Shown piece after piece: positions 1,719-16,810 of a DNA stretch of 51,015 bases. Within the stretch, counting starts at the first letter, position 1; each line of letters opens with the position of its first letter. The notes beneath the pieces are model-generated. The model made no database searches and was not told the DNA's origin. It saw nothing but the letters and a program-made list of their open reading frames with translations. Where the stretch lies: positions 1 through 51,015 of IMG/VR virus record IMGVR_UViG_2721755676_000003. The stretch is one strand, 5' to 3'. Origin of the DNA: a virus. Its lineage: Duplodnaviria > Heunggongvirae > Uroviricota > Caudoviricetes. The position numbers were made by a program, and so were the translations under genes.

Positions 1719-2804
1719 TTAGTCCACGTATTCCGGTTTCATATCCGCCAGGATGATGCTGAACTGACCATGCAGTTCGTCGCCCAGATGGCGTTTCGAC
1801 GATGCAAGAACGCGCTCTACTTCTGCGAACCGCGCAGCTGCATCGGGCTCATCTGAAGGTGGCAAGGAATTGATGGCTGCTTCGACTTTGTTCCGTGCAT
1901 CAACCAGGTAATAACGCTTCACGGCCTTGTTTTTCAGCTCAGTGAACAGGGCAGAACCCAGCGTTGATTTCACGGTTTCAATATCTGCGCGCAGAGCTTT
2001 AGCGCTATCCACATCCTGAGCCGCCTCGATGCGATCACGGAAATCATCAGCAAGTGCATCGATGTTTTGAGCTGATTCCTGAGCCATTTGAGTCGTAGTT
2101 ACGTTGTCACCTGAAATGTCTGCAAGGCTAACGTGCTGCGCCGGTGCGGGGTTTACCTCTCGTTCTTCACGGCGATCATCGAGCTCATCCGGGGTGTAAA
2201 CACCCAGAATTACATCCGGGCAGAACAGTCTCGCCCAGCGTTTGACTGCCAGGTACGCCAGCTGCTGGCGAGGGTCGTCAGCCCAGAGGGTAGAATTTCG
2301 GGTACGGGCCTGAGCCAGCAGCAAATCGAGTTCTCTCGGCTGATCTTCGCCTTTAAGCGTTGCGCGGATAATGATGCCGATCCCGGCTTCGTCAGCCAGG
2401 GTCCAGCCCGGGACGCGGTACTCGCCTTTGTCGCCTTTACGGATATTGAATTTTCCAACGACCTTTTCCCATGGCCCGTACCATTCATATTCAAAGCGGC
2501 TGGCCAGCACGCCGCTTCGTGAAATGACGGCATTAACCAGCTGCGCTTCATACCCGAGCACACCGTTAATCAGGTGCGTTTTCTGCGCCACGGCAAAGGG
2601 ATTCATCTGCCACTGTGCTGCTTGCATCGCTACAGCCATGCAGTCGGCCTGGTTGCCCTGCAGGTGTTTAGGAACGGTCGCGGTGCCTTGCGCCATGATC
2701 TGCGCAAATGTGCTGATGGCGTTCAGATACTGGGAATCGAACAGAGCCACGTTGGAGTTAATAACGGTGTTCTGGTCAGCAACGGTAACGTTTGTGTTAT
2801 GCAT
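1719..2804 (-). CDS. recT: RecT-family single-strand annealing protein
   Basis: 361-aa ORF immediately downstream of a large RecE-like exonuclease gene on the same strand; N-terminal region resembles RecT/Bet-type annealing proteins; family assignment from recall, not a search. Confidence 0.6.
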   Translation of the reverse strand: MHNTNVTVADQNTVINSNVALFDSQYLNAISTFAQIMAQGTATVPKHLQGNQADCMAVAMQAAQWQMNPFAVAQKTHLINGVLGYEAQLVNAVISRSGVLASRFEYEWYGPWEKVVGKFNIRKGDKGEYRVPGWTLADEAGIGIIIRATLKGEDQPRELDLLLAQARTRNSTLWADDPRQQLAYLAVKRWARLFCPDVILGVYTPDELDDRREEREVNPAPAQHVSLADISGDNVTTTQMAQESAQNIDALADDFRDRIEAAQDVDSAKALRADIETVKSTLGSALFTELKNKAVKRYYLVDARNKVEAAINSLPPSDEPDAAARFAEVERVLASSKRHLGDELHGQFSIILADMKPEYVD

Positions 2805-2813
2805 ATATCCCCC

Positions 2814-5558
2814 TTATGCCTGAGCGCGCAGCGCTTCGAGGCGGCGCAGGTCGAAGTCGTTCAGTTCATCTGTGTAATCGGTAGTGATCGGCGCTGGCCA
2901 TTCGCCCGTATCGAATCCGGTTGCGATGGCGCGCATTGTTTTGCGGTACTCGAGCATGCCCAGTTCCAGCAGTTCTGCGGATGCCTCAATGATGGCAATC
3001 CAGTGGTAGTTCTCGTCTTTGTTGACGAAAATCCAGAAGAACTGGTCCAGCGCCGCGGTCTCGCAATACATAGCCGCGCTGAGGTGATAGTCACGGTCAA
3101 TGATTTCCCGGTGCAGCCTGGCGCGCAGGCTTTCCTGCTTAACGTTCCACATGCTGATGGTTTTCAGGTCAGCACCGATACGCACGCCGTCCAGTTCAAT
3201 CTCGAGGTCAGGGCGTACACGCACTTCTAAACCTGTTTCGTCGTCAAAGCCGAAGTAACTCACTTCAACAGCGCGGCTTGGATGTGTCAGCAGCATGCCA
3301 GCGGTCGGGTGCGCCAGTAGTGCTGACTGAATTGCCCGCGCTGTGGCCAGCTGCTGGCGGGTAACCAGAATCTTTTCGCCAGGGTTGTCGCGCCAGGAAT
3401 CCAGCAGTTCGTCTGCGAACACTGCATCGGGCTTAACTGATTTAACCGCCTGGATCATGTCTGCTTTGCTGCCGGAGACTTTCAGCGGCGTTGGTTTCTG
3501 CGCATCCTGTGCGACCAAATCAGGATTGATGATCGCTAATTGCTCGATTAGCGCATCACGGCTGCCGCTGGTTTTAACCGGCACGGGCAGGGTGGCGTTG
3601 TACTCTTTAATGCATGCCTTCATTGCAGCTGCTGTCTGCTTCTGGCCTTCTTCAATACGCTGGTACTCAGCTGGGAGAGCCATATAGCTTTGAGCCGTTT
3701 CTTCCAGGCTCGCGCCAAGCGGCACTGGAGCGGGAAGGGCTGCGTTATGTTCTTCAAGCAACGCTTTAATCTCGTCAGCGCTCAGCAGTGCCGGCAGGCT
3801 GGCGTTGTACCCGTCGATGAACTCACGCAGAGTAGCGGTGGTAGTGAAAGCTCCCTCCGGGATCTCAGGTTCTACGCTGAACTCTGCTTCGAGGTTTTCC
3901 GGTTGCAGTGCAAGGGCGTGCACCAGATTTCCCATATCCAGCACTTTGGATGCTGTGCGCGGGATGGTTTTAGCCACATGGCGTGCGTTGAAGTACATCA
4001 GGCTGACGCGGGCATCTTTCACCTGGGTTGAGCTGATACCGTTTGCTGCGTGATAAACATCATTCGGCAGACCTTCGTAGCGGCCAGGTTCGAAGTATGC
4101 AGGGAACTCCACTTCTGGGTTCGATTCCTGAACGTCAATTGTTGTTTCCGGCAACTGGTCTGCTTCTACGGAATCTGTCTGCGAATTAGCTGCATCAGTG
4201 CCTTCGCCTGGTTGTACCGGATCAGTATTTTCGACTTTCTCTGGCTGAGTCGTTTCCATCTGCACATCGCTGGTGGTCTCCGCTGTAACCGGTGAACGGT
4301 CATCGTTCTGTGTTTGTTTTTCGTTCATCAGGTTATCGATAGTGAACATGCCATCGCCACGGTTCGTGACCTGCGGCTGCGTTGCTAACGATGCTTTTTC
4401 CGCTTCAATCTGCTCGTTAACTTCACTTTCCCAGCTCACCTCTGGATTGTGCCGCGCTGCAGCCAACGTTTCGGCTGTTGGTTTTCCATGATCGCTTTCA
4501 GTCAGATTGGCACTGATGTATCCGCTGAGGCGCCCCGGGTTTTTGTAATATTCCGGGTGTGCGCTTCTGATAAGCGCGAAGATTGATGCGCGTGAATAGT
4601 CGAGAATGCCAGGGGTATTGCGAAGAGCGGCAGACCACTCCTTGAATGGACTTTCTTTAGCTGCGACGATTTCTTTCGCCCTACGGTAAACATATCCGGG
4701 GATATCGTAGACATTGAAATCATCAGGCAGGGTGGCCAGAGCTATTTCACTGTCGAGTGTATCGAGCGTGTGTGTGTAGCCTGAATTACGATCTGTTTCA
4801 TTTCCGCCACCTGCATTTGTGCCGACGTCAGTACGCTGCACGCTGCTAATTCGGTTTCCGGCAGCCCATTCGCGAACGAGAATGCCGCGATCGATATGCT
4901 CGGTGTTGAACCAGGTCTTAAAGAAATGAATGACAAGAGACAGCTCTGTCCGCTTCCCGTCTAACGGGAAGATAGTCTTCAGAGCCTCAACAACCCTGGC
5001 AATTTCGAATTCAGTCGCTTTTTTGAACGCATCGACGTTCTCTGCAGCGAGCAGCATGTTTTGAACGTAGCTGTTATCGACATCCATCTCGAGCTGTTGA
5101 ATTTCATTCTTCTGCTCAGTGTCGATGTGATAGGCGTACTCGTCAGAAATGAACTGAGCCAGAATGCGCTGACGCAGTGGGAGCTTAGCAACCGTGATCA
5201 GCTCAGGCATCTTTGTGTCTTTGGTATCAGTAATACTGCAAGTCGACTGCTCAGAAGAGTTCTGGTAAGAATCTTCATGCTGTAACTTCTCTTTCCACGT
5301 ACGCTGGTCTTCGTCCAGTTCGTAGCGTTTGCACCAGGTGTAATCCACGGTGCTTTCTTCAGGTAGATCGTTGTAAACAGGGAAATCGGTGCGAACCGGT
5401 TTTGAGTAATCCTTACCGCGGCCGGTTTCAATACCAGCATCTTCCAGCTCGACATCGAGCTGCAGGTTGGCGCGGGCTTCAGATTTCGCAGTGAACCAAA
5501 TCACTGCATCTTCTTTGCCAGATTTCTGCGTAGCCTTAACTACATAGAAAAATTCCAT
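2814..5558 (-). CDS. recE: RecE-like exonuclease VIII (large protein with C-terminal PD-(D/E)xK nuclease domain)
   Basis: 914-aa ORF with acidic low-complexity central region and C-terminal D...ExK-like motif (RPDLEIELDGVRIGADLKT); paired with recT as in Rac-type prophages; RBS AGAGGA upstream of ATG. Confidence 0.6.
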   Translation of the reverse strand: MEFFYVVKATQKSGKEDAVIWFTAKSEARANLQLDVELEDAGIETGRGKDYSKPVRTDFPVYNDLPEESTVDYTWCKRYELDEDQRTWKEKLQHEDSYQNSSEQSTCSITDTKDTKMPELITVAKLPLRQRILAQFISDEYAYHIDTEQKNEIQQLEMDVDNSYVQNMLLAAENVDAFKKATEFEIARVVEALKTIFPLDGKRTELSLVIHFFKTWFNTEHIDRGILVREWAAGNRISSVQRTDVGTNAGGGNETDRNSGYTHTLDTLDSEIALATLPDDFNVYDIPGYVYRRAKEIVAAKESPFKEWSAALRNTPGILDYSRASIFALIRSAHPEYYKNPGRLSGYISANLTESDHGKPTAETLAAARHNPEVSWESEVNEQIEAEKASLATQPQVTNRGDGMFTIDNLMNEKQTQNDDRSPVTAETTSDVQMETTQPEKVENTDPVQPGEGTDAANSQTDSVEADQLPETTIDVQESNPEVEFPAYFEPGRYEGLPNDVYHAANGISSTQVKDARVSLMYFNARHVAKTIPRTASKVLDMGNLVHALALQPENLEAEFSVEPEIPEGAFTTTATLREFIDGYNASLPALLSADEIKALLEEHNAALPAPVPLGASLEETAQSYMALPAEYQRIEEGQKQTAAAMKACIKEYNATLPVPVKTSGSRDALIEQLAIINPDLVAQDAQKPTPLKVSGSKADMIQAVKSVKPDAVFADELLDSWRDNPGEKILVTRQQLATARAIQSALLAHPTAGMLLTHPSRAVEVSYFGFDDETGLEVRVRPDLEIELDGVRIGADLKTISMWNVKQESLRARLHREIIDRDYHLSAAMYCETAALDQFFWIFVNKDENYHWIAIIEASAELLELGMLEYRKTMRAIATGFDTGEWPAPITTDYTDELNDFDLRRLEALRAQA

Positions 5559-6332: not shown

Positions 6333-7265
6333 TTAGTTAAGACTTTTAATCATATAGTTACGTCTAGAGATCTTTAATCTGTCATTATGAATTTCTGTAA
6401 CGCTAGCAACCATTGATACGTGTGAGCCTACTTTAAATCTTGACTGTATTTCACTAAGCATATCAATAGGATATGATGCCTTTATCTTTCCGTCAGCGTT
6501 CACCACTTCGAGTTTGCCATACATAGAGAGCAGTGATAGCTCACCTGTGATAATTTCATTCCACGGTTTGGATATTTCCGTGAAAGCTAACCTTTTTGTG
6601 AGCCTATCAATAGCTTCTTTGTTTAAGGAAACCGAACGCCTACCTTCACTTAACGGTCCGATCCAAGATAATTCTAGTGCTAAGCCATTTCGCTCGCACT
6701 CTTCTACAATGTTTTTAAGGTTATGCGTTGAATTCGACCCAATTTCAGCAAGTTTAGAAATAAATGAATCTTCGTCAGTGGCCTCTAGTACTGAGAAAAT
6801 TTCTTTTACAGCATGGCTAGAAACCGTATCAACCAGTTCACATGCCCCTGTGGAGAACGTTACGGCTAGCTTTGTTGAACCAGGCCTCAAATCAGCCAGT
6901 CTCATATCTAGAGACTGCTTTATCCCTACAGGTACCTTGCGTGAGTCTTTTCCTGATGAAATCCGATGTACGGCTTTTTGAACTAGGCCAGCAAGGTTTC
7001 CAGAAATGACAGAAAGTAATTCCAGAGGCATAGTTCCTGCGTCAACAAGAAAACCTTTGAACCTTAACTCCATGAAATCTTGGAGCGGGTGCTCTATCTC
7101 AGCAGATCTCAGTTCAGCCCTCAAATCGCTTAAATGGGAATCTAAGCTGCGCGCTAAAATTCTGTCGGCAAGAGTCATTTCATGAGCAGGGCCGATTTTG
7201 TTCATACGATCCTGAATGAACGCAATCCTTTGTTTTAATGGTATAAATTTTGGCTCTGTGCTCAT
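6333..7265 (-). CDS. Uncharacterised 310-aa protein, second gene of NTase-led operon
   Basis: 310-aa ORF; start ATG overlaps upstream gene stop (ATGA coupling); no motif I can assign; soluble. Confidence 0.6.
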   Translation of the reverse strand: MSTEPKFIPLKQRIAFIQDRMNKIGPAHEMTLADRILARSLDSHLSDLRAELRSAEIEHPLQDFMELRFKGFLVDAGTMPLELLSVISGNLAGLVQKAVHRISSGKDSRKVPVGIKQSLDMRLADLRPGSTKLAVTFSTGACELVDTVSSHAVKEIFSVLEATDEDSFISKLAEIGSNSTHNLKNIVEECERNGLALELSWIGPLSEGRRSVSLNKEAIDRLTKRLAFTEISKPWNEIITGELSLLSMYGKLEVVNADGKIKASYPIDMLSEIQSRFKVGSHVSMVASVTEIHNDRLKISRRNYMIKSLN

Positions 7266-7735
7266 ACTACAACCCTCGCTAAACCTTTTGGCGTTTCCTC
7301 TCTATCGTATCCAAAGCACCCTCGCCAATACATCCTGTCGTTTGTATAATCAGACTTTGGATCCCCTTTGAAAAGAGGTAAAAGGTCAATATGATAATTT
7401 AACTTTATAAAATCCCTATCCAAGAGACTTTCAACCTGAGGGGCAAACATTATAGGAATGGCATTTATAGCATCAAAATCCATAACAACTAGTATATCGA
7501 CATCATCGGGATCTAGTTTTTCAGTTGTAAATGAGCCGTCTACCCAAATTTCCAGAAAGCAATTAAATTGCTTATTAAGAACGCGCAAGTTGGTAATTAA
7601 CTGTATGAAATTACAGTATAGCATGGATCTACGAGTTGACTTAGGAAAACTATCAACACATATTTTTTTCAACTGGTTGTCATCAATATCATGAAAACCT
7701 GGTGTGAAGAGTGGCGGATAGCATTTCTTAGACAT
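7262..7735 (-). CDS. Small nucleotidyltransferase-fold protein (Pol-beta/minimal NTase signature)
   Basis: 157-aa ORF containing hG[GS]-x9-DxD-hhhh signature (IWVDGSFTTEKLDPDDVDILVVMDFD) typical of minimal nucleotidyltransferases. Confidence 0.5.
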   Translation of the reverse strand: MSKKCYPPLFTPGFHDIDDNQLKKICVDSFPKSTRRSMLYCNFIQLITNLRVLNKQFNCFLEIWVDGSFTTEKLDPDDVDILVVMDFDAINAIPIMFAPQVESLLDRDFIKLNYHIDLLPLFKGDPKSDYTNDRMYWRGCFGYDREETPKGLARVVV

Positions 7736-10875: not shown

Positions 10876-11712
10876 CTAATGATGATAAATACCATCGTCT
10901 AAAGGGGGACCTTCAGCAGTAACCCCCGTGATTCTACTTGGCGGTTCAAAGATGGCCTCACCAAATATCGCATCAAACTCTGCTTTGGTGACTGATAAGT
11001 ATTGCAAGATGAGCTCTAGCAGCTCTCTGTACGTATCACAATGCCATTCAATGTGAGGACATATTTGGGAGAGAACTCTGGTCTTAAAATCATCCAGATT
11101 TTTTGGGACTTCCAGCAAGTTACCAGTGTTTAATGCTTTCGACATAAACTTGTAATTGAGCATGGAGAGAACCATTACTGATACACCTTTCTCTTGCCTT
11201 AACTGATCGAACTTCTCTTGTGCTTGAAGGCTTAGCTTGGCGTATTCGCGATCTCGTTTTGAGTTGACTGGTTCGACGTACTGAAGCGGTTCGTCTGCAG
11301 CATCACCGATACGTGGACAAAAGTATCTATTCCACCAAGCCTCAAAATACCTTTTTTGGAACTCTAGGTATGTCATCCCAATAATATTGGTGTTTTGAGT
11401 GTACTGTTTAGCACCCTGCTGAAGCCCGTGCTTTGAAATAATAAATCCAATGTTAGCCCCGGTTTCATGCATTACCGTGGTGAACGAATGGACCACCGTC
11501 TGAGGTATAGAACTACCCCAGTTTTTGCATTCCACAATGTATCTGATTTTGTCCACGCTCCTAACATCTGTAGCTAGAACATCCACATTCACCGAGCCAC
11601 GCGGTGTTTCTAAATCGACCTCGACTTCTGCAAACAAGCCAACATTACGGAATATACGTTGGACCCCTGTCTGGAGGTCTTGCCAGTTTTCTGGTAATGG
11701 GTCATCGATCAC
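10876..11712 (-). CDS. Mrr-like restriction-endonuclease-fold protein (PD-(D/E)xK) with unknown C-terminal domain
   Basis: N-terminal VDVLATDVRSVDKIRYIVECKNW (D...ExK) typical of Mrr_cat nucleases; opposite strand to the replication genes. Confidence 0.5.
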   Translation of the reverse strand: MIDDPLPENWQDLQTGVQRIFRNVGLFAEVEVDLETPRGSVNVDVLATDVRSVDKIRYIVECKNWGSSIPQTVVHSFTTVMHETGANIGFIISKHGLQQGAKQYTQNTNIIGMTYLEFQKRYFEAWWNRYFCPRIGDAADEPLQYVEPVNSKRDREYAKLSLQAQEKFDQLRQEKGVSVMVLSMLNYKFMSKALNTGNLLEVPKNLDDFKTRVLSQICPHIEWHCDTYRELLELILQYLSVTKAEFDAIFGEAIFEPPSRITGVTAEGPPLDDGIYHH

Positions 11713-12046
11713 TTTTACTTTTCCTATGCACTATCCGCATGCTTTTAAGACTACTTGAAGACACAAACGTCGTCATCCACTAAAAGGTTCAAATTTGAGA
11801 TGATAGTTCGTTTCTGGTATGAAACGAACCGTTTGAAGAGCCGAGTGCTCTGCTAAGAGCCAGGAGTGGACGTTCTCAAAGCATTGCTTACATCGAGGAT
11901 GTATTAATCAACGGGGTGCAGGTCAATTGATCCATAAAAGGTTGAATGCTCTATACTAAGCACTAGTAAAAAACATTGCACAACATACACTTAAGGTTTA
12001 AATTGCTTATCACCAAAACATAAATTTAATCATAGGCTGATGGCGT

Positions 12047-13510
12047 ATGCTAAAGGTAATTAAAAAAGGTATTGGCTTCAATAAAACAGAAAAAAGATTG
12101 ATTGAATTAGCTAATAATGCCTTTATAGGTTTGTGGTCATATCCTAATGTTTATAGTGATGAGGGTTTTGCAAAAAATAAATCGGGTAAAGAAGTGTGTG
12201 ATTTATTAGTGGTTTTTGAAAATAATGTAATTTTGTTTTCTGATAAAGACATTAAGTTTAATGATGAAATTGATATCCATATTGCATGGAAAAGATGGTT
12301 TAGGAGAGCAGTAATCGAATCAGCGACTCAACTGCATGGAGCTGAAAAATTTCTAAAAGAGCAAAGTGACAGATTATTTCTTGATAAAGAGTGTAAGGAG
12401 AGGTTTCCAATAACAATTGACAATAAGATGCGCTTTTTTTTGATCGCAGTAACTAGCAATAGCGCAATTCCAGCTTTCAATTACTTTGGTCGTATCGCGG
12501 AAGGAAGTTCTGGAACTTTAGTAAATTGCTTTCCCTTTGGAATAAAGGAAAGTATGGAGCAACCTTTTACTGTTGGAGATTTGTATCCTGATAAGACATT
12601 TATCCATGTTTTAGATGAACTATCGTTAAAATTACTATTCTCTGAGCTGGATACAATTACTGACTTCGTTGACTATTTAAAAGAGAAAGAACGAGTCGTG
12701 AGGACAGGTTTTCTTGGATTAAGTCCTGGTGAGGATGACACACTGGGTGCCTACTTGATCGGGCATGGATTAATAGTAGATGAAAAGAAGGTGCCAAAAA
12801 ACTCGTTTGTTCGAATTGCAGAGCATGAATGGACTGAACTAAAAAAATCGCAATTATATGAATATTATACAGCTCTAAAAAAAGGTAGCTATTTTTGGGA
12901 TGAAACAGTACAACGTTTTTCCGATTCCATATTAAATGCAACTGTTGGTCTAGGTAAGGAAAATGACTTTCTTAGTCATGAGGAAACATTAAGACAATTA
13001 GCCTCTGAAAGCAGAGAATCAAGATATTATTTATCTAAATCATTCTTGGATAAATTCAAGCAAGTTCCTTCTGACAGAAGAAGCTCCAGAATCGTAGAGT
13101 CTTTAGATGAAAAAGGAAAGTTTTATATTTTTTTGTTTTTTCCGCGTGAAAAACATTTATCATATGAGGAATATAGAAACGAACGTTTTTCTTGCATTCA
13201 AATGTATGCGTTAACAGCTAAATATAAATACCCACAAATAAAAAAACTCATAGTCATTGCTACTGAAAGTAAAGACTCCGAAGGTCGTTCAGAGGATGTG
13301 GTATTTTGTCGATTTGATAACCCCCTTTCAAAAGGCGAACGTCTGTTTGTACAATCAGTGATGCACGAATATAGCATACTTACTGATTTCATTCCAAAAC
13401 CGAACAATAAATTAAATTTGTCACCGATAGTTAAAAGTGACAAGAAACCTGGAAGGAATGAACCTTGTTTTTGTGGATCTGGTATAAAATATAAAAAATG
13501 CCATGGATAG
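12047..13510 (+). CDS. SEC-C motif protein of unknown function (AT-rich cargo)
   Basis: 487-aa ORF ending in CFCGSGIKYKKCHG (SEC-C metal-binding motif); strongly AT-rich relative to phage backbone. Confidence 0.6.
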   Translation: MLKVIKKGIGFNKTEKRLIELANNAFIGLWSYPNVYSDEGFAKNKSGKEVCDLLVVFENNVILFSDKDIKFNDEIDIHIAWKRWFRRAVIESATQLHGAEKFLKEQSDRLFLDKECKERFPITIDNKMRFFLIAVTSNSAIPAFNYFGRIAEGSSGTLVNCFPFGIKESMEQPFTVGDLYPDKTFIHVLDELSLKLLFSELDTITDFVDYLKEKERVVRTGFLGLSPGEDDTLGAYLIGHGLIVDEKKVPKNSFVRIAEHEWTELKKSQLYEYYTALKKGSYFWDETVQRFSDSILNATVGLGKENDFLSHEETLRQLASESRESRYYLSKSFLDKFKQVPSDRRSSRIVESLDEKGKFYIFLFFPREKHLSYEEYRNERFSCIQMYALTAKYKYPQIKKLIVIATESKDSEGRSEDVVFCRFDNPLSKGERLFVQSVMHEYSILTDFIPKPNNKLNLSPIVKSDKKPGRNEPCFCGSGIKYKKCHG

Positions 13511-13955
13511 AAAATTAGCATAATTCTATTAACTCATTGCCATTATCTTGACAAAACTAAATGGAAACTTGTCATATTTATTTCTTGAAAATATTTAATT
13601 ACTGGCTGTAGCAACTTTAACTTAGTGCGGGCATAGCTATGAATCTCCGATTGTACTGGCAGGGGGCTACAACTTTAGATGACTCACTCCCATCTTCAAC
13701 AAGCTAGCTGGCTGCCTTGTGTTGCGAGGATTCGTAATGATGATGTCAGTTTTGTCCGCTTCTGGCAAGAGGCGGACGAGATGGCTAGGCTTAAGACCTG
13801 CTGAAAGCCAGGAGCTGACATCACTACAACTTTTAATGCTAACTTCACTTAAAATAATTTTGGAATTTGCACATATGGGTTATATAAGTAAATCATCGCA
13901 ATGAGTTCTATGCGATAATTTTATATTTAGTCCCCATCTTTATCGGATGGTTCAT

Positions 13956-14729
13956 CTAAGCTTTAACTCGCCTGACAAGAGTTTTACTGCAACCTATACT
14001 GAGAAGGTGGCGTCGAAGATTTTTATCAATATGACTATCCAACGTGGTAATTAAAAACACTATATCCTCAATAACCTTAACAACATCCGAGCTTGATATT
14101 TTAGTGAGGCTTACCTTTGGTCTGTCACAATTATGGATACAATCATGTCTCCTCTGAATTAGCGAAGTATATCTGTTAGTTAGCTTTTCTAACATAGATT
14201 TCCGTTTTTTTTCTTTATCCTCTTTGGATAACTTTTTGTAAGCTGTTGGAGTGGTTCCCATAAGACGATGCTTCGCTGACTTATTTATCAACCAGTCCTC
14301 CATCATCGGCTTTGTTAATATTTTGTTTTTTTCATCCATGATATGATTGAACAAATCCTTAATTTTATCGATTGAAAGTACGTTATCTTTTTCAATCAAG
14401 TCACGTGCTGCATTTCGCCATTTCCAATTCGAAGTTGTATTCTGAGCATTCACGATAGAATTTATAGGTAACTTCAATGACCTTATCTTTGGGCTTAATT
14501 TGACATTGCTGTCAATGCTTTTTGCAATTAGGATTTTTGATAACACATCTGCAAATGCATCACAAAAATATGCATCAAGTGCTCCAATCGCAATCATCCA
14601 AGAGGCTCTATATATATCATCCTTTAGAGTCGATATAGGTAATGAATCAGCATGAGCTATAAGGTCTTTTGCTCTATTAATATCCTGATTAAAATGACTT
14701 AACGCTGTGCTTGGCATATAACACCTCAA
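13956..14729 (-). CDS. HEPN-like protein (candidate abortive-infection RNase)
   Basis: 257-aa ORF with C-terminal R-x4-H motif (LIQRRHDCIHNCDRPK) in a helical, lysine-rich protein; AT-rich. Confidence 0.4.
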   Translation of the reverse strand: MRCYMPSTALSHFNQDINRAKDLIAHADSLPISTLKDDIYRASWMIAIGALDAYFCDAFADVLSKILIAKSIDSNVKLSPKIRSLKLPINSIVNAQNTTSNWKWRNAARDLIEKDNVLSIDKIKDLFNHIMDEKNKILTKPMMEDWLINKSAKHRLMGTTPTAYKKLSKEDKEKKRKSMLEKLTNRYTSLIQRRHDCIHNCDRPKVSLTKISSSDVVKVIEDIVFLITTLDSHIDKNLRRHLLSIGCSKTLVRRVKA

Positions 14730-15040
14730 AATAAATGATTTATATGGTTAATTGGAAATGCAAAACTTAAATTTTAGTTTATACCGTTTGTTGCCAGAAT
14801 ACGATATATTCACAGATTCTAGACCATTAACATTGGCACTACAGCCAGATAATGAGTTTGAACGTACACCGTAGTATACTTTCTGATCTGCCCACCCCAA
14901 AAAAATTAGTACTATCTGGATTACCACAGTCCGCTCTTGTCACCCAAATGTTATTTTACCTTAATGACATTAGATTTCATTTGGATCAGATTGCCGCAAC
15001 TATCAGTGTGCGGCAAGTAGCTGAAGCATTCATAGAGTAT

Positions 15041-16285
15041 TTATGGGTCAAGGAGGGATTTAAACTGAGATATGGGATAGTCATATCGTTCGTTATAGAA
15101 TGCCGCAAGCTTGCAGTATTCTGCTAGGTGAGCATCTGGCCTGTATGGGACAATCGCTCCTTCAATCGATAGCTCAATACTATTAGTGACAATCAACATC
15201 AAGGCATGATCTTTAGTAAATAGTTGTTCTGAAAGTAAACGATATTTATTTTTAGGCTCGGAAATAGTTTTGAATGATTCGAACGTGTCATTAATAAACT
15301 GAAGTGCCAATGCTCCAGGTCGTTTTCCTGTCAGTTGTTTTTTTAACGCCCGCTTAGATACTTTCTCAACCTCTTTCCAAATTTGTACATCACCTGCGGA
15401 TACGACCCGAATTCCCTTTAATCGATGCTCAGAGTCATGGCAGGCCACTAACGCTGCTGTGGAGCCATGGAGTGTTTGTGCTGCATTGAAGACTACATTC
15501 TCATCAGTTTTATCTCCCAATAATGGGCAAAATTCTTCAACAACAGAAAACTTTTCGCTGTGTATATCGTTGCCTTGAGTTTCAATCTCGTCTACTAGGC
15601 GAGCCATAAATTCTTTGAAGCTTTTATCGTTCTTAGGCACAGGTTCCGTCAAAATGATGGTCAAGATACTTGCGAATCCTTCCTTTGCAGTGAGAAGTCT
15701 GTCGAGCGAGATTTTTTCCAGCAAAGCACCAATCAAGCGATGCCCATCTGCAAGACTAACAGCAAAACCTTTATCACCTGCGAAGGATTTGCACTCAAGC
15801 TCAAATGGAGGAAGCCCTTGAGGTGGGTAGACTAGAAGGTCAAAGGTCTCCTCGCCTTTACTTTCCTCTGGCCATTCAATGGAGCACCCCCTGGAGATTA
15901 GTGTTTTGGCCATATATAACTCGTACTGCAAAGCGCGCATGTCGCTGGCAAGCTTGAACGCACCCTCGAAACGTTTTTTGAGTTCCCTGGGGCCTGGTTC
16001 ACCTCTTTCCACTGCTTCACACAGTTCCACCACTCGCTGCACAAATAACATTGTCTGGAACATTGTATTCCATTCGTATCCCGCATTTAATGCATACTGA
16101 TTTCTATCCCAAAACGTCAAACCGAATGCTACTGAGTTTTCTAATTCTTCCTGTCCACCACGTCCAGCAAATTGATTTGAAAGTAACTTTATGTCCTGAA
16201 CGACCTTCAGCCAAGGCTTTAAAGGGAAAAGCTTGACTAAACGGTTATAAATATCAGGGAAGCTAAGCATAATGAGGGGCATCAA
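15041..16285 (-). CDS. Hypothetical 414-aa protein with PD-(D/E)xK-like motif
   Basis: ETFDLLVYPPQGLPPFELECKSF (D...E-x-K) suggests a nuclease fold; otherwise unrecognised. Confidence 0.45.
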   Translation of the reverse strand: MMPLIMLSFPDIYNRLVKLFPLKPWLKVVQDIKLLSNQFAGRGGQEELENSVAFGLTFWDRNQYALNAGYEWNTMFQTMLFVQRVVELCEAVERGEPGPRELKKRFEGAFKLASDMRALQYELYMAKTLISRGCSIEWPEESKGEETFDLLVYPPQGLPPFELECKSFAGDKGFAVSLADGHRLIGALLEKISLDRLLTAKEGFASILTIILTEPVPKNDKSFKEFMARLVDEIETQGNDIHSEKFSVVEEFCPLLGDKTDENVVFNAAQTLHGSTAALVACHDSEHRLKGIRVVSAGDVQIWKEVEKVSKRALKKQLTGKRPGALALQFINDTFESFKTISEPKNKYRLLSEQLFTKDHALMLIVTNSIELSIEGAIVPYRPDAHLAEYCKLAAFYNERYDYPISQFKSLLDP

Positions 16286-16790
16286 ATATTATCTCCTTAG
16301 GTCAGCGCTTAAACAAAACTCCATCTTTAATACAACGTTTAATCTGCAAGAGCATACTACAGTGAATATCTGGGCGTCATATGCCCAATGCCCGAAAGCA
16401 TAATATGTATGCCTTTTAGCTGAAACTGGCCTTCACTCTGCAGACCTGAATACGTCACAAGCAAGGACCAGAGTAGTATCGGCATTGGTTGTGAAATCTT
16501 TAATTCACATGATGAGAGCATTATGCAACGGGTACTTTAACGATGATACCGAAGCGAGAACCTTTCTTGCAGGTTCTCGCTATAGGGCTTGGTAATAGCA
16601 TGTTGCTTGTCAGTCATGCCACATACCCAAACGTTCATTCTTGCTTCCGCTTTAAAACACTCAATCCACAGAAACTACAAGTCTTCACGCTGGAAGTAAC
16701 CTGTTGTTTGTTTGGGGGGCACATAATCTCAGTAAGTTACATTGTGATCTCATAAAACGTTGCAAAATCCGTTACATAAGTTTATAAAAG

Positions 16791-16810
16791 CACTGTACAT
16801 GCATACAGTG
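16791..16810. promoter_or_regulatory. LexA (SOS) box upstream of dinI-like gene
   Basis: Perfect palindrome CACTGTACATGCATACAGTG (CTGT-N8-ACAG) about 20 nt upstream of the dinI-like ATG. Confidence 0.55.

Follow-up and report, generated by a model that had tools for sequence, protein, structure and literature searches.

What does the gene at 15041..16285 in the accessory island of a lambdoid/Rac-like prophage encode, and does its product act alone or in concert with the HEPN-like gene located downstream of it? The window, which is the whole stretch of DNA that was analysed (51,015 nucleotides, positions 1 to 51,015 of IMG/VR record IMGVR_UViG_2721755676_000003), carries this gene on the minus strand with a TTG start, and its product of 414 amino acids (aa) belongs to an unnamed family of proteins of approximately 420 aa. 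A first-pass annotation of the same DNA had listed the open reading frame (ORF) at this position, had pointed to a putative PD-(D/E)xK core in the peptide ETFDLLVYPPQGLPPFELECKSF, and had proposed that the gene may form a functional pair with its HEPN-like neighbour. The position of the ORF, its strand and its length of 414 aa were confirmed, and the peptide corresponds to residues 146-168 (15782..15850, minus strand), a segment that is conserved in the family. On balance, we lean towards a cytosolic three-domain nuclease that acts alone in defence or exclusion.

The pairwise ratio of nonsynonymous to synonymous divergence (dN/dS) between copies of the gene is 0.15-0.23, which marks the ORF as a genuine gene maintained by purifying selection. 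Enterobacter hormaechei has the same protein of 414 residues, annotated there as a hypothetical protein. Its TTG start codon (at 16285) is a weak start, which is preceded by an AAGGAG sequence (16293-16298) with a 7-nucleotide spacer, and non-ATG starts are found in six of the seven copies that were compared (five TTG and one GTG, the seventh being ATG).

Whether the protein is a nuclease cannot be read from the motif alone. Taken by itself, D-x(8-30)-[DE]xK is no more frequent than expected by chance: it occurs four times in the protein against a mean of 4.2 in composition-preserving shuffles, 95% of which contain at least one instance. It is the conservation across the family, together with the predicted structure, that makes the D149...E164-x-K166 instance meaningful. 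In family alignments of 116-146 members with a mean identity of approximately 20%, the only invariant columns are E122, D149, K166 and Q317; E164 and C165 are 99% conserved, and E164, C165, G173, R105 and W25 all reach at least 96%. Three of the four invariant residues (E122, D149 and K166), together with E164, make up the PD-(D/E)xK catalytic set.

An AlphaFold2 model built on the family alignment (predicted local distance difference test 85, predicted template modelling score 0.77) places these residues in a core spanning residues 113-212 (15650..15949, minus strand), which has the alpha-beta-beta-beta-alpha-beta order of a canonical restriction-endonuclease-like unit: a helix (113-131) that contains E122, three strands (135-137, 150-153 next to D149, and 161-169 with E164-C-K166), a second helix (178-191) and a final strand (204-212). 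The residues that characterize the superfamily are all found at their expected places, namely an acidic residue where strand 2 begins (D149, codon 15839-15841), E164-x-K166 on strand 3 (codons 15788-15796), and a glutamate on helix 1 (E122, codon 15920-15922, outside the ETFDLLVYPPQGLPPFELECKSF segment). The core is structurally similar to solved PD-(D/E)xK members, its matches including Hjc, NucS and XisH. It is flanked by an all-helical N-terminal domain (residues 1-112; 15950..16285, minus strand), with conserved W25, L56 and R105, and by a C-terminal alpha/beta domain (residues 213-414; 15044..15649, minus strand), in which the invariant Q317 (codon 15335-15337) is part of a QLTGxRPG motif. 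The C-terminal domain searched alone gave no nuclease structural matches, and such matches therefore stem from residues 113-212; the C-terminal half also has no profile similarity to the nuclease core. With Foldseek, the full model had no significant match in the PDB, and the overall architecture is therefore without a solved counterpart.

Family conservation and the restriction-endonuclease-like core of the model thus support the nuclease reading of the first-pass annotation. In the predicted structure, the central domain adopts the PD-(D/E)xK nuclease fold and holds its complete catalytic set, and the modelled protein is very likely an active nuclease. The competing explanation is that the protein is a scaffold or DNA-binding protein whose PD-(D/E)xK-like domain is catalytically dead, or that the motif arose by chance in an unrelated fold. 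It draws on the chance frequency of the bare motif and on the sequence profiles, since no match to a nuclease-family profile went beyond curated thresholds; we give it a slim chance. At the level of sequence, ties to named nuclease families are faint. Among the 116 family members, a single one matched Pfam PDDEXK_5 (9e-5), and a sequence-profile search of the PDB returned nothing relevant, only a spurious uridine phosphorylase stretch (E 0.75).

The family is large and has gone without a name: library scans with the hidden Markov models of Pfam, NCBIfam, PADLOC v2 and PHROGs gave no match for the 414-aa protein. A word-indexed search found 29 relatives in Enterobacter, Pectobacterium, Yersinia, Providencia, Klebsiella and Pseudomonas, every named one of which is labelled as a hypothetical protein. 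At E<=1e-3, an exhaustive profile search identified 867 cluster representatives, which with few exceptions are 410-430 aa long and match end to end; the family comprises at least 867 clusters at 50% identity, from Beta- and Gammaproteobacteria. By tblastn, the family was also found on megaplasmids of Pseudomonas, Burkholderia, Paraburkholderia and Cupriavidus. Some members are longer, such as the distant P0057 and P0137 (532 aa), which have an additional stretch of approximately 110 aa at the N-terminus with a partial Glyoxalase_8 (PF20066) match, and P0068 (588 aa) and P0147 (653 aa), which have longer extensions. Neither the gene nor its surroundings were matched by megablast or blastn in 5,426 complete E. 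coli genomes or in phage records. The 90% protein cluster of the 414-aa protein does contain E. coli members, e.g. WP_065304121.1 on a 5.0-Mb contig, which suggests that the E. coli genome and phage collections are without the relevant records. A limited search of the literature and its supplements for accession numbers of the family found none.

The second part of the question, whether the gene works with its neighbour, can be addressed by comparing loci. The next ORF on the same strand (listed as 13956..14729) starts 311 bp downstream, and the two genes are indeed co-oriented, as had been noted; with the better-supported ATG start and ribosome-binding site at 14717, which is also the gene-caller start, the gap is 323 bp. 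The neighbour (13956-14717, minus strand, 253 aa) has 693 homologues, many of which match the HEPN_RiboL-PSP family (PF18735), and carries an RX4H motif (RRHDCIH). No solved structure, HepS included, matches it in sequence. A two-gene system composed of the 414-aa nuclease and the HEPN protein, for instance a DNase/RNase effector pair or a toxin with its regulator, could be proposed from the co-orientation and short distance of the genes, from the fact that the neighbour is truly a HEPN_RiboL-PSP relative with an RX4H motif, and from the preservation of the two genes together in the related prophages L001, L002 and L029. These prophages are, however, the only genomes in which both genes occur together, and they are near-identical (98% nucleotide identity for L001 and L002, 92% for L029; 91-98% among these prophages over 4 kb). 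At approximately 20 other family loci, the HEPN profile matched none of the neighbours at E<=10, and neither all-against-all clustering nor a Pfam scan of 130 neighbours from some 20 independent loci revealed any recurrent neighbour of the family gene. In L008 and L023, the family gene has a gene of approximately 250 aa downstream of it; these two were considered as distant HEPN relatives and rejected, as the HEPN profile did not detect them.

The HEPN homologues, in turn, occur without the 414-aa family, in Enterovibrio (beside a GmrSD_N + HEPN pair), in Aeromonas, and as a lone gene elsewhere. The two genes also differ in GC content (43% for the 414-aa gene versus 35% for the HEPN gene), and the stop codon of the 414-aa gene is followed by a hairpin in the gap between them, which also holds a promoter-like site ahead of the HEPN gene. 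Solo HEPN proteins can defend alone (PMC13043305), and the neighbour is probably a solo system of its own. The functional pair suggested by the first-pass annotation was therefore not borne out, given that the shared DNA described below ends before the HEPN gene and that no HEPN relative accompanies the family at the other loci; a lack of co-occurrence in other genomes is what that annotation had itself named as refuting its proposal, and we regard such a two-gene system as scarcely credible.

How far the functional unit extends is indicated by the copies in Pectobacterium (L003, 90% nucleotide identity) and Yersinia (L004, 84%), whose nucleotide homology with the window is confined to a block that begins at 14984-14989 and ends at 16442. 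This block comprises the ORF, a 157-bp leader and a 3' hairpin, and leaves out the HEPN gene. As the homology (14984-16442) stops short of the HEPN gene, the functional unit is a single-gene cassette, and the 414-aa gene thus constitutes an autonomous cassette of approximately 1.46 kb composed of leader, TTG start, ORF and hairpin. The synonymous divergence (dS) between the copies of Enterobacter, Pectobacterium, Yersinia and one Pseudomonas is 0.31-0.67, and the cassette was therefore recently exchanged between genera. Its final conserved element, the hairpin (14982..15028, minus strand), is located 13 nucleotides past the stop codon and has a folding energy of -16.9 kcal/mol (z -2.4); because it is not followed by a U-tract, its function as a terminator is uncertain.

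The leader (16286..16442, minus strand), which includes the AAGGAG sequence, is conserved with the gene in the Pectobacterium and Yersinia copies (window 16286-16442; L003 9839-10000; L004 7745-8000) despite their unrelated contexts. It holds an imperfect inverted repeat, GAGTGAA...TTCACTG, between the arms of which the Yersinia copy has an insertion of approximately 100 bp. A scan for consensus sigma-70 promoters found no site in 16286-16442. The possibility that the leader is a structured RNA was rejected, as it folds no better than shuffled sequences (z +0.33), has no Rfam match and shows no real covariation; because there is no signal of RNA structure the leader may be an operator, and it is probably a promoter/operator region. 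A 54-codon ORF within it was likewise rejected as a partner gene, since stop codons interrupt it in the Pectobacterium and Yersinia leaders. These results bear on the possibility that the protein is a growth-arresting toxin (abortive infection or addiction) acting on RNA such as tRNA and curbed by low expression or by a small, unrecognised antitoxin or RNA encoded in the leader. There is no conserved partner ORF, the 54-codon candidate being broken, the leader folds no better than shuffles and is without an Rfam match, and specificity for RNA is not readable from the fold alone. The conserved adjacent small partner gene that would mark a type II toxin-antitoxin or Abi system was not found at approximately 20 loci. 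An RNA-targeting toxin is, on these grounds, improbable.

For the stand-alone nuclease, the following mode of action can be proposed. E122, D149, E164 and K166 would bind a divalent metal and catalyse the cleavage of phosphodiester bonds, most likely in DNA, and the flanking domains would decide the target or the timing of cutting, with the N-terminal domain proposed for recognition of the substrate or trigger. Alone, the protein would protect the host or lysogen from phage or plasmid DNA that enters the cell, in a mode akin to that of a solitary Type IV/Mrr-like restriction enzyme or of a self-contained nuclease such as Shedu. A role of the gene in defence is, in our judgement, evenly balanced. 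More tentatively, the family may be an unrecognised single-gene immune nuclease that spreads as a 1.46-kb plug-in among prophages, integrative islands and megaplasmids, its N- and C-terminal domains sensing or selecting foreign nucleic acid.

The family gene lands in variable accessory regions of prophages, genomic islands and plasmids. Recognisable defence systems are located within a few kb of it in at least six contexts, a count that was not compared with any genome-wide background: a TIR-PNP protein in L003; an SMC/CTD3 three-gene set with an integrase in L004; Hachiman HamA/HamB in L008; a TIR protein, Mrr_cat and an endonuclease in L009; a complete Menshen NsnABC system in L015; and Mrr_cat, the HEPN gene and PDC-M63A/B in the window. 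The remaining contexts are islands with an integrase or transposase, or megaplasmid regions full of hypothetical genes, and no methyltransferase is recurrent among the neighbours of the family gene.

The missing background for these neighbourhoods is one of several points that weigh against a defence role. PADLOC-DB v2, which includes Shedu, the PD-T4/T7/Lambda systems and the PDC candidates, returned no family at E<=1 for the 414-aa protein. The family was absent from 50,697 phage records searched by tblastn, and a pattern scan of IMG/VR found no relatives, so that carriage by phages is exceptional and the prophage site described here unusual for the family. Both cleavage and defence are deduced from the sequence and the model and not from experiment, and the roles given to the two flanking domains are entirely conjectural. 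Furthermore, the megaplasmid contexts near conjugation, topoisomerase or helicase genes fit processing of the DNA of the element itself equally well.

Such processing is the main rival to defence. The nuclease would then serve the mobile element in recombination, repair, resolution of replication intermediates or establishment after transfer, and not in immunity. The gene is invariably carried by mobile or accessory DNA, the megaplasmid copies are close to conjugation genes, a topoisomerase, a UvrD-like helicase and an SOS-response peptidase, the prophage region around the gene carries the NinB, RusA and RecET recombination genes, and Hjc, NucS and XisH are among the structural matches of the core. 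However, in no type of element does the gene keep a constant position or partner, it is antisense to the early-right operon of the phage and has a foreign GC content, and the family is absent from sequenced phages. It is also sporadic among related elements and was recently transferred between genera, a pattern that is typical of dispensable cargo and not of a core function of the element. We therefore consider a DNA-processing role for the element unlikely, and continue to favour the stand-alone nuclease acting in defence or exclusion.

The prophage in the window encodes RecE/RecT, a cI-like repressor, YdaT, O and P and, past the island, DinI, NinB (DUF1367), RusA, the Q antiterminator and lysis genes. 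Its recombination module (1719-5558, minus strand) consists of a RecT gene and of a gene for a 914-aa RecE-like protein (Exonuc_VIII + DUF3799, with a PDDEXK-like domain), which makes the element Rac-like in this respect. The accessory island is inserted between replication gene P and dinI/ninB, the slot occupied by ren in phage lambda, and contains four genes, encoding the Mrr_cat protein, the SEC-C protein, the HEPN protein and the 414-aa protein. With its four unrelated accessory genes, the island (11800-16800) has a GC content of 34-44%, versus 55-58% for the phage backbone. In L001 and L002 a second P gene is found nearby, and L002 also has a second NinB-like (DUF1367) gene; these additional copies point to mosaic recombination at the accessory slot.

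Other genes of the window deserve mention. The Mrr_cat 'restriction endonuclease' (10876-11712, minus strand, 278 aa) displays a D44...E61-C-K63 motif; this protein is 60-99% conserved across Enterobacterales, Pseudomonas and Vibrio, and a methyltransferase was not seen next to it. The 487-aa protein (12047-13510, plus strand) is matched over its full length by phrog_18195 (E 6e-181), and a SEC-C zinc motif is present at its C-terminus; the stretch CDLLVVFENNVILFSDKDIKF near the N-terminus reads like a candidate D...DxK nuclease motif. Two adjacent genes of 310 aa and 157 aa (6333-7735, minus strand) correspond to the PADLOC candidate system PDC-M63B + PDC-M63A (E 9e-44 and 9e-40), the 157-aa product being DUF6932. 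This gene pair adjoins the cI-like repressor in a rexAB-like position.

If the 414-aa protein is a stand-alone defence nuclease, its family represents a widespread single-gene system that is overlooked by current catalogues (Pfam, NCBIfam, PADLOC v2 and PHROGs) and that brings two new accessory domains. A defence role would also make it a compact case of a defence gene that travels among different kinds of site, namely a lambdoid prophage slot, chromosomal islands and plasmids. Should the nuclease serve the element instead, the family would still be unannotated, well conserved and worth naming. Solitary nucleases are no novelty in defence islands and the PD-(D/E)xK fold is well known; with a familiar catalytic fold, the result extends known biology and overturns none of it.

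When compared with known systems, the 414-aa protein is set apart from the Mrr-like and Type IV enzymes (Mrr_cat PF04471; AF1548, PDB 1y88) in several ways. Neither the query nor any of 116 family members has an Mrr_cat match; hhalign aligned FDLLV...ELECKS in register with VDVLA...IVECKN of the window's own Mrr_cat family, with a weak profile-profile score (E 0.014, probability 3%). Its nuclease domain is central and not terminal and is flanked by two unrecognised domains, and no domain that binds modified bases or reads DNA modification, as found in Type IV enzymes, was recognised in it. The CdiA-CT nuclease toxin domain of Burkholderia pseudomallei 1026b (PDB 4g6v) shares 13% sequence identity with the protein; CdiA-CT is the secreted tip of a large toxin of the contact-dependent growth inhibition (CDI) type with an adjacent immunity gene, whereas the 414-aa protein is cytosolic and stand-alone and has no conserved neighbour. 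Shedu (SduA, DUF4263; PDB 8ps4) differs in domain order from the 414-aa protein, in which the nuclease is central and which has no match to the PADLOC Shedu or Pfam DUF4263 models, and the structural similarity to Shedu is below that to many generic restriction enzymes. HepS of prophage Gifsy-1 (PMC13043305) is unrelated in fold, being a HEPN RNase and not a PD-(D/E)xK nuclease, and it has been validated experimentally, whereas the 414-aa gene is known from sequence alone. The accessory slot of lambdoid prophages, flanked by the replication genes and by regulatory genes downstream of them, is documented, and defence by a solo nuclease, HepS, has been shown there (PMC13043305). HepS is thus the conceptual analogue of the 414-aa gene: a single-gene nuclease defence, free of any conserved partner, that resides in the accessory slot by the replication genes of a lambdoid prophage.
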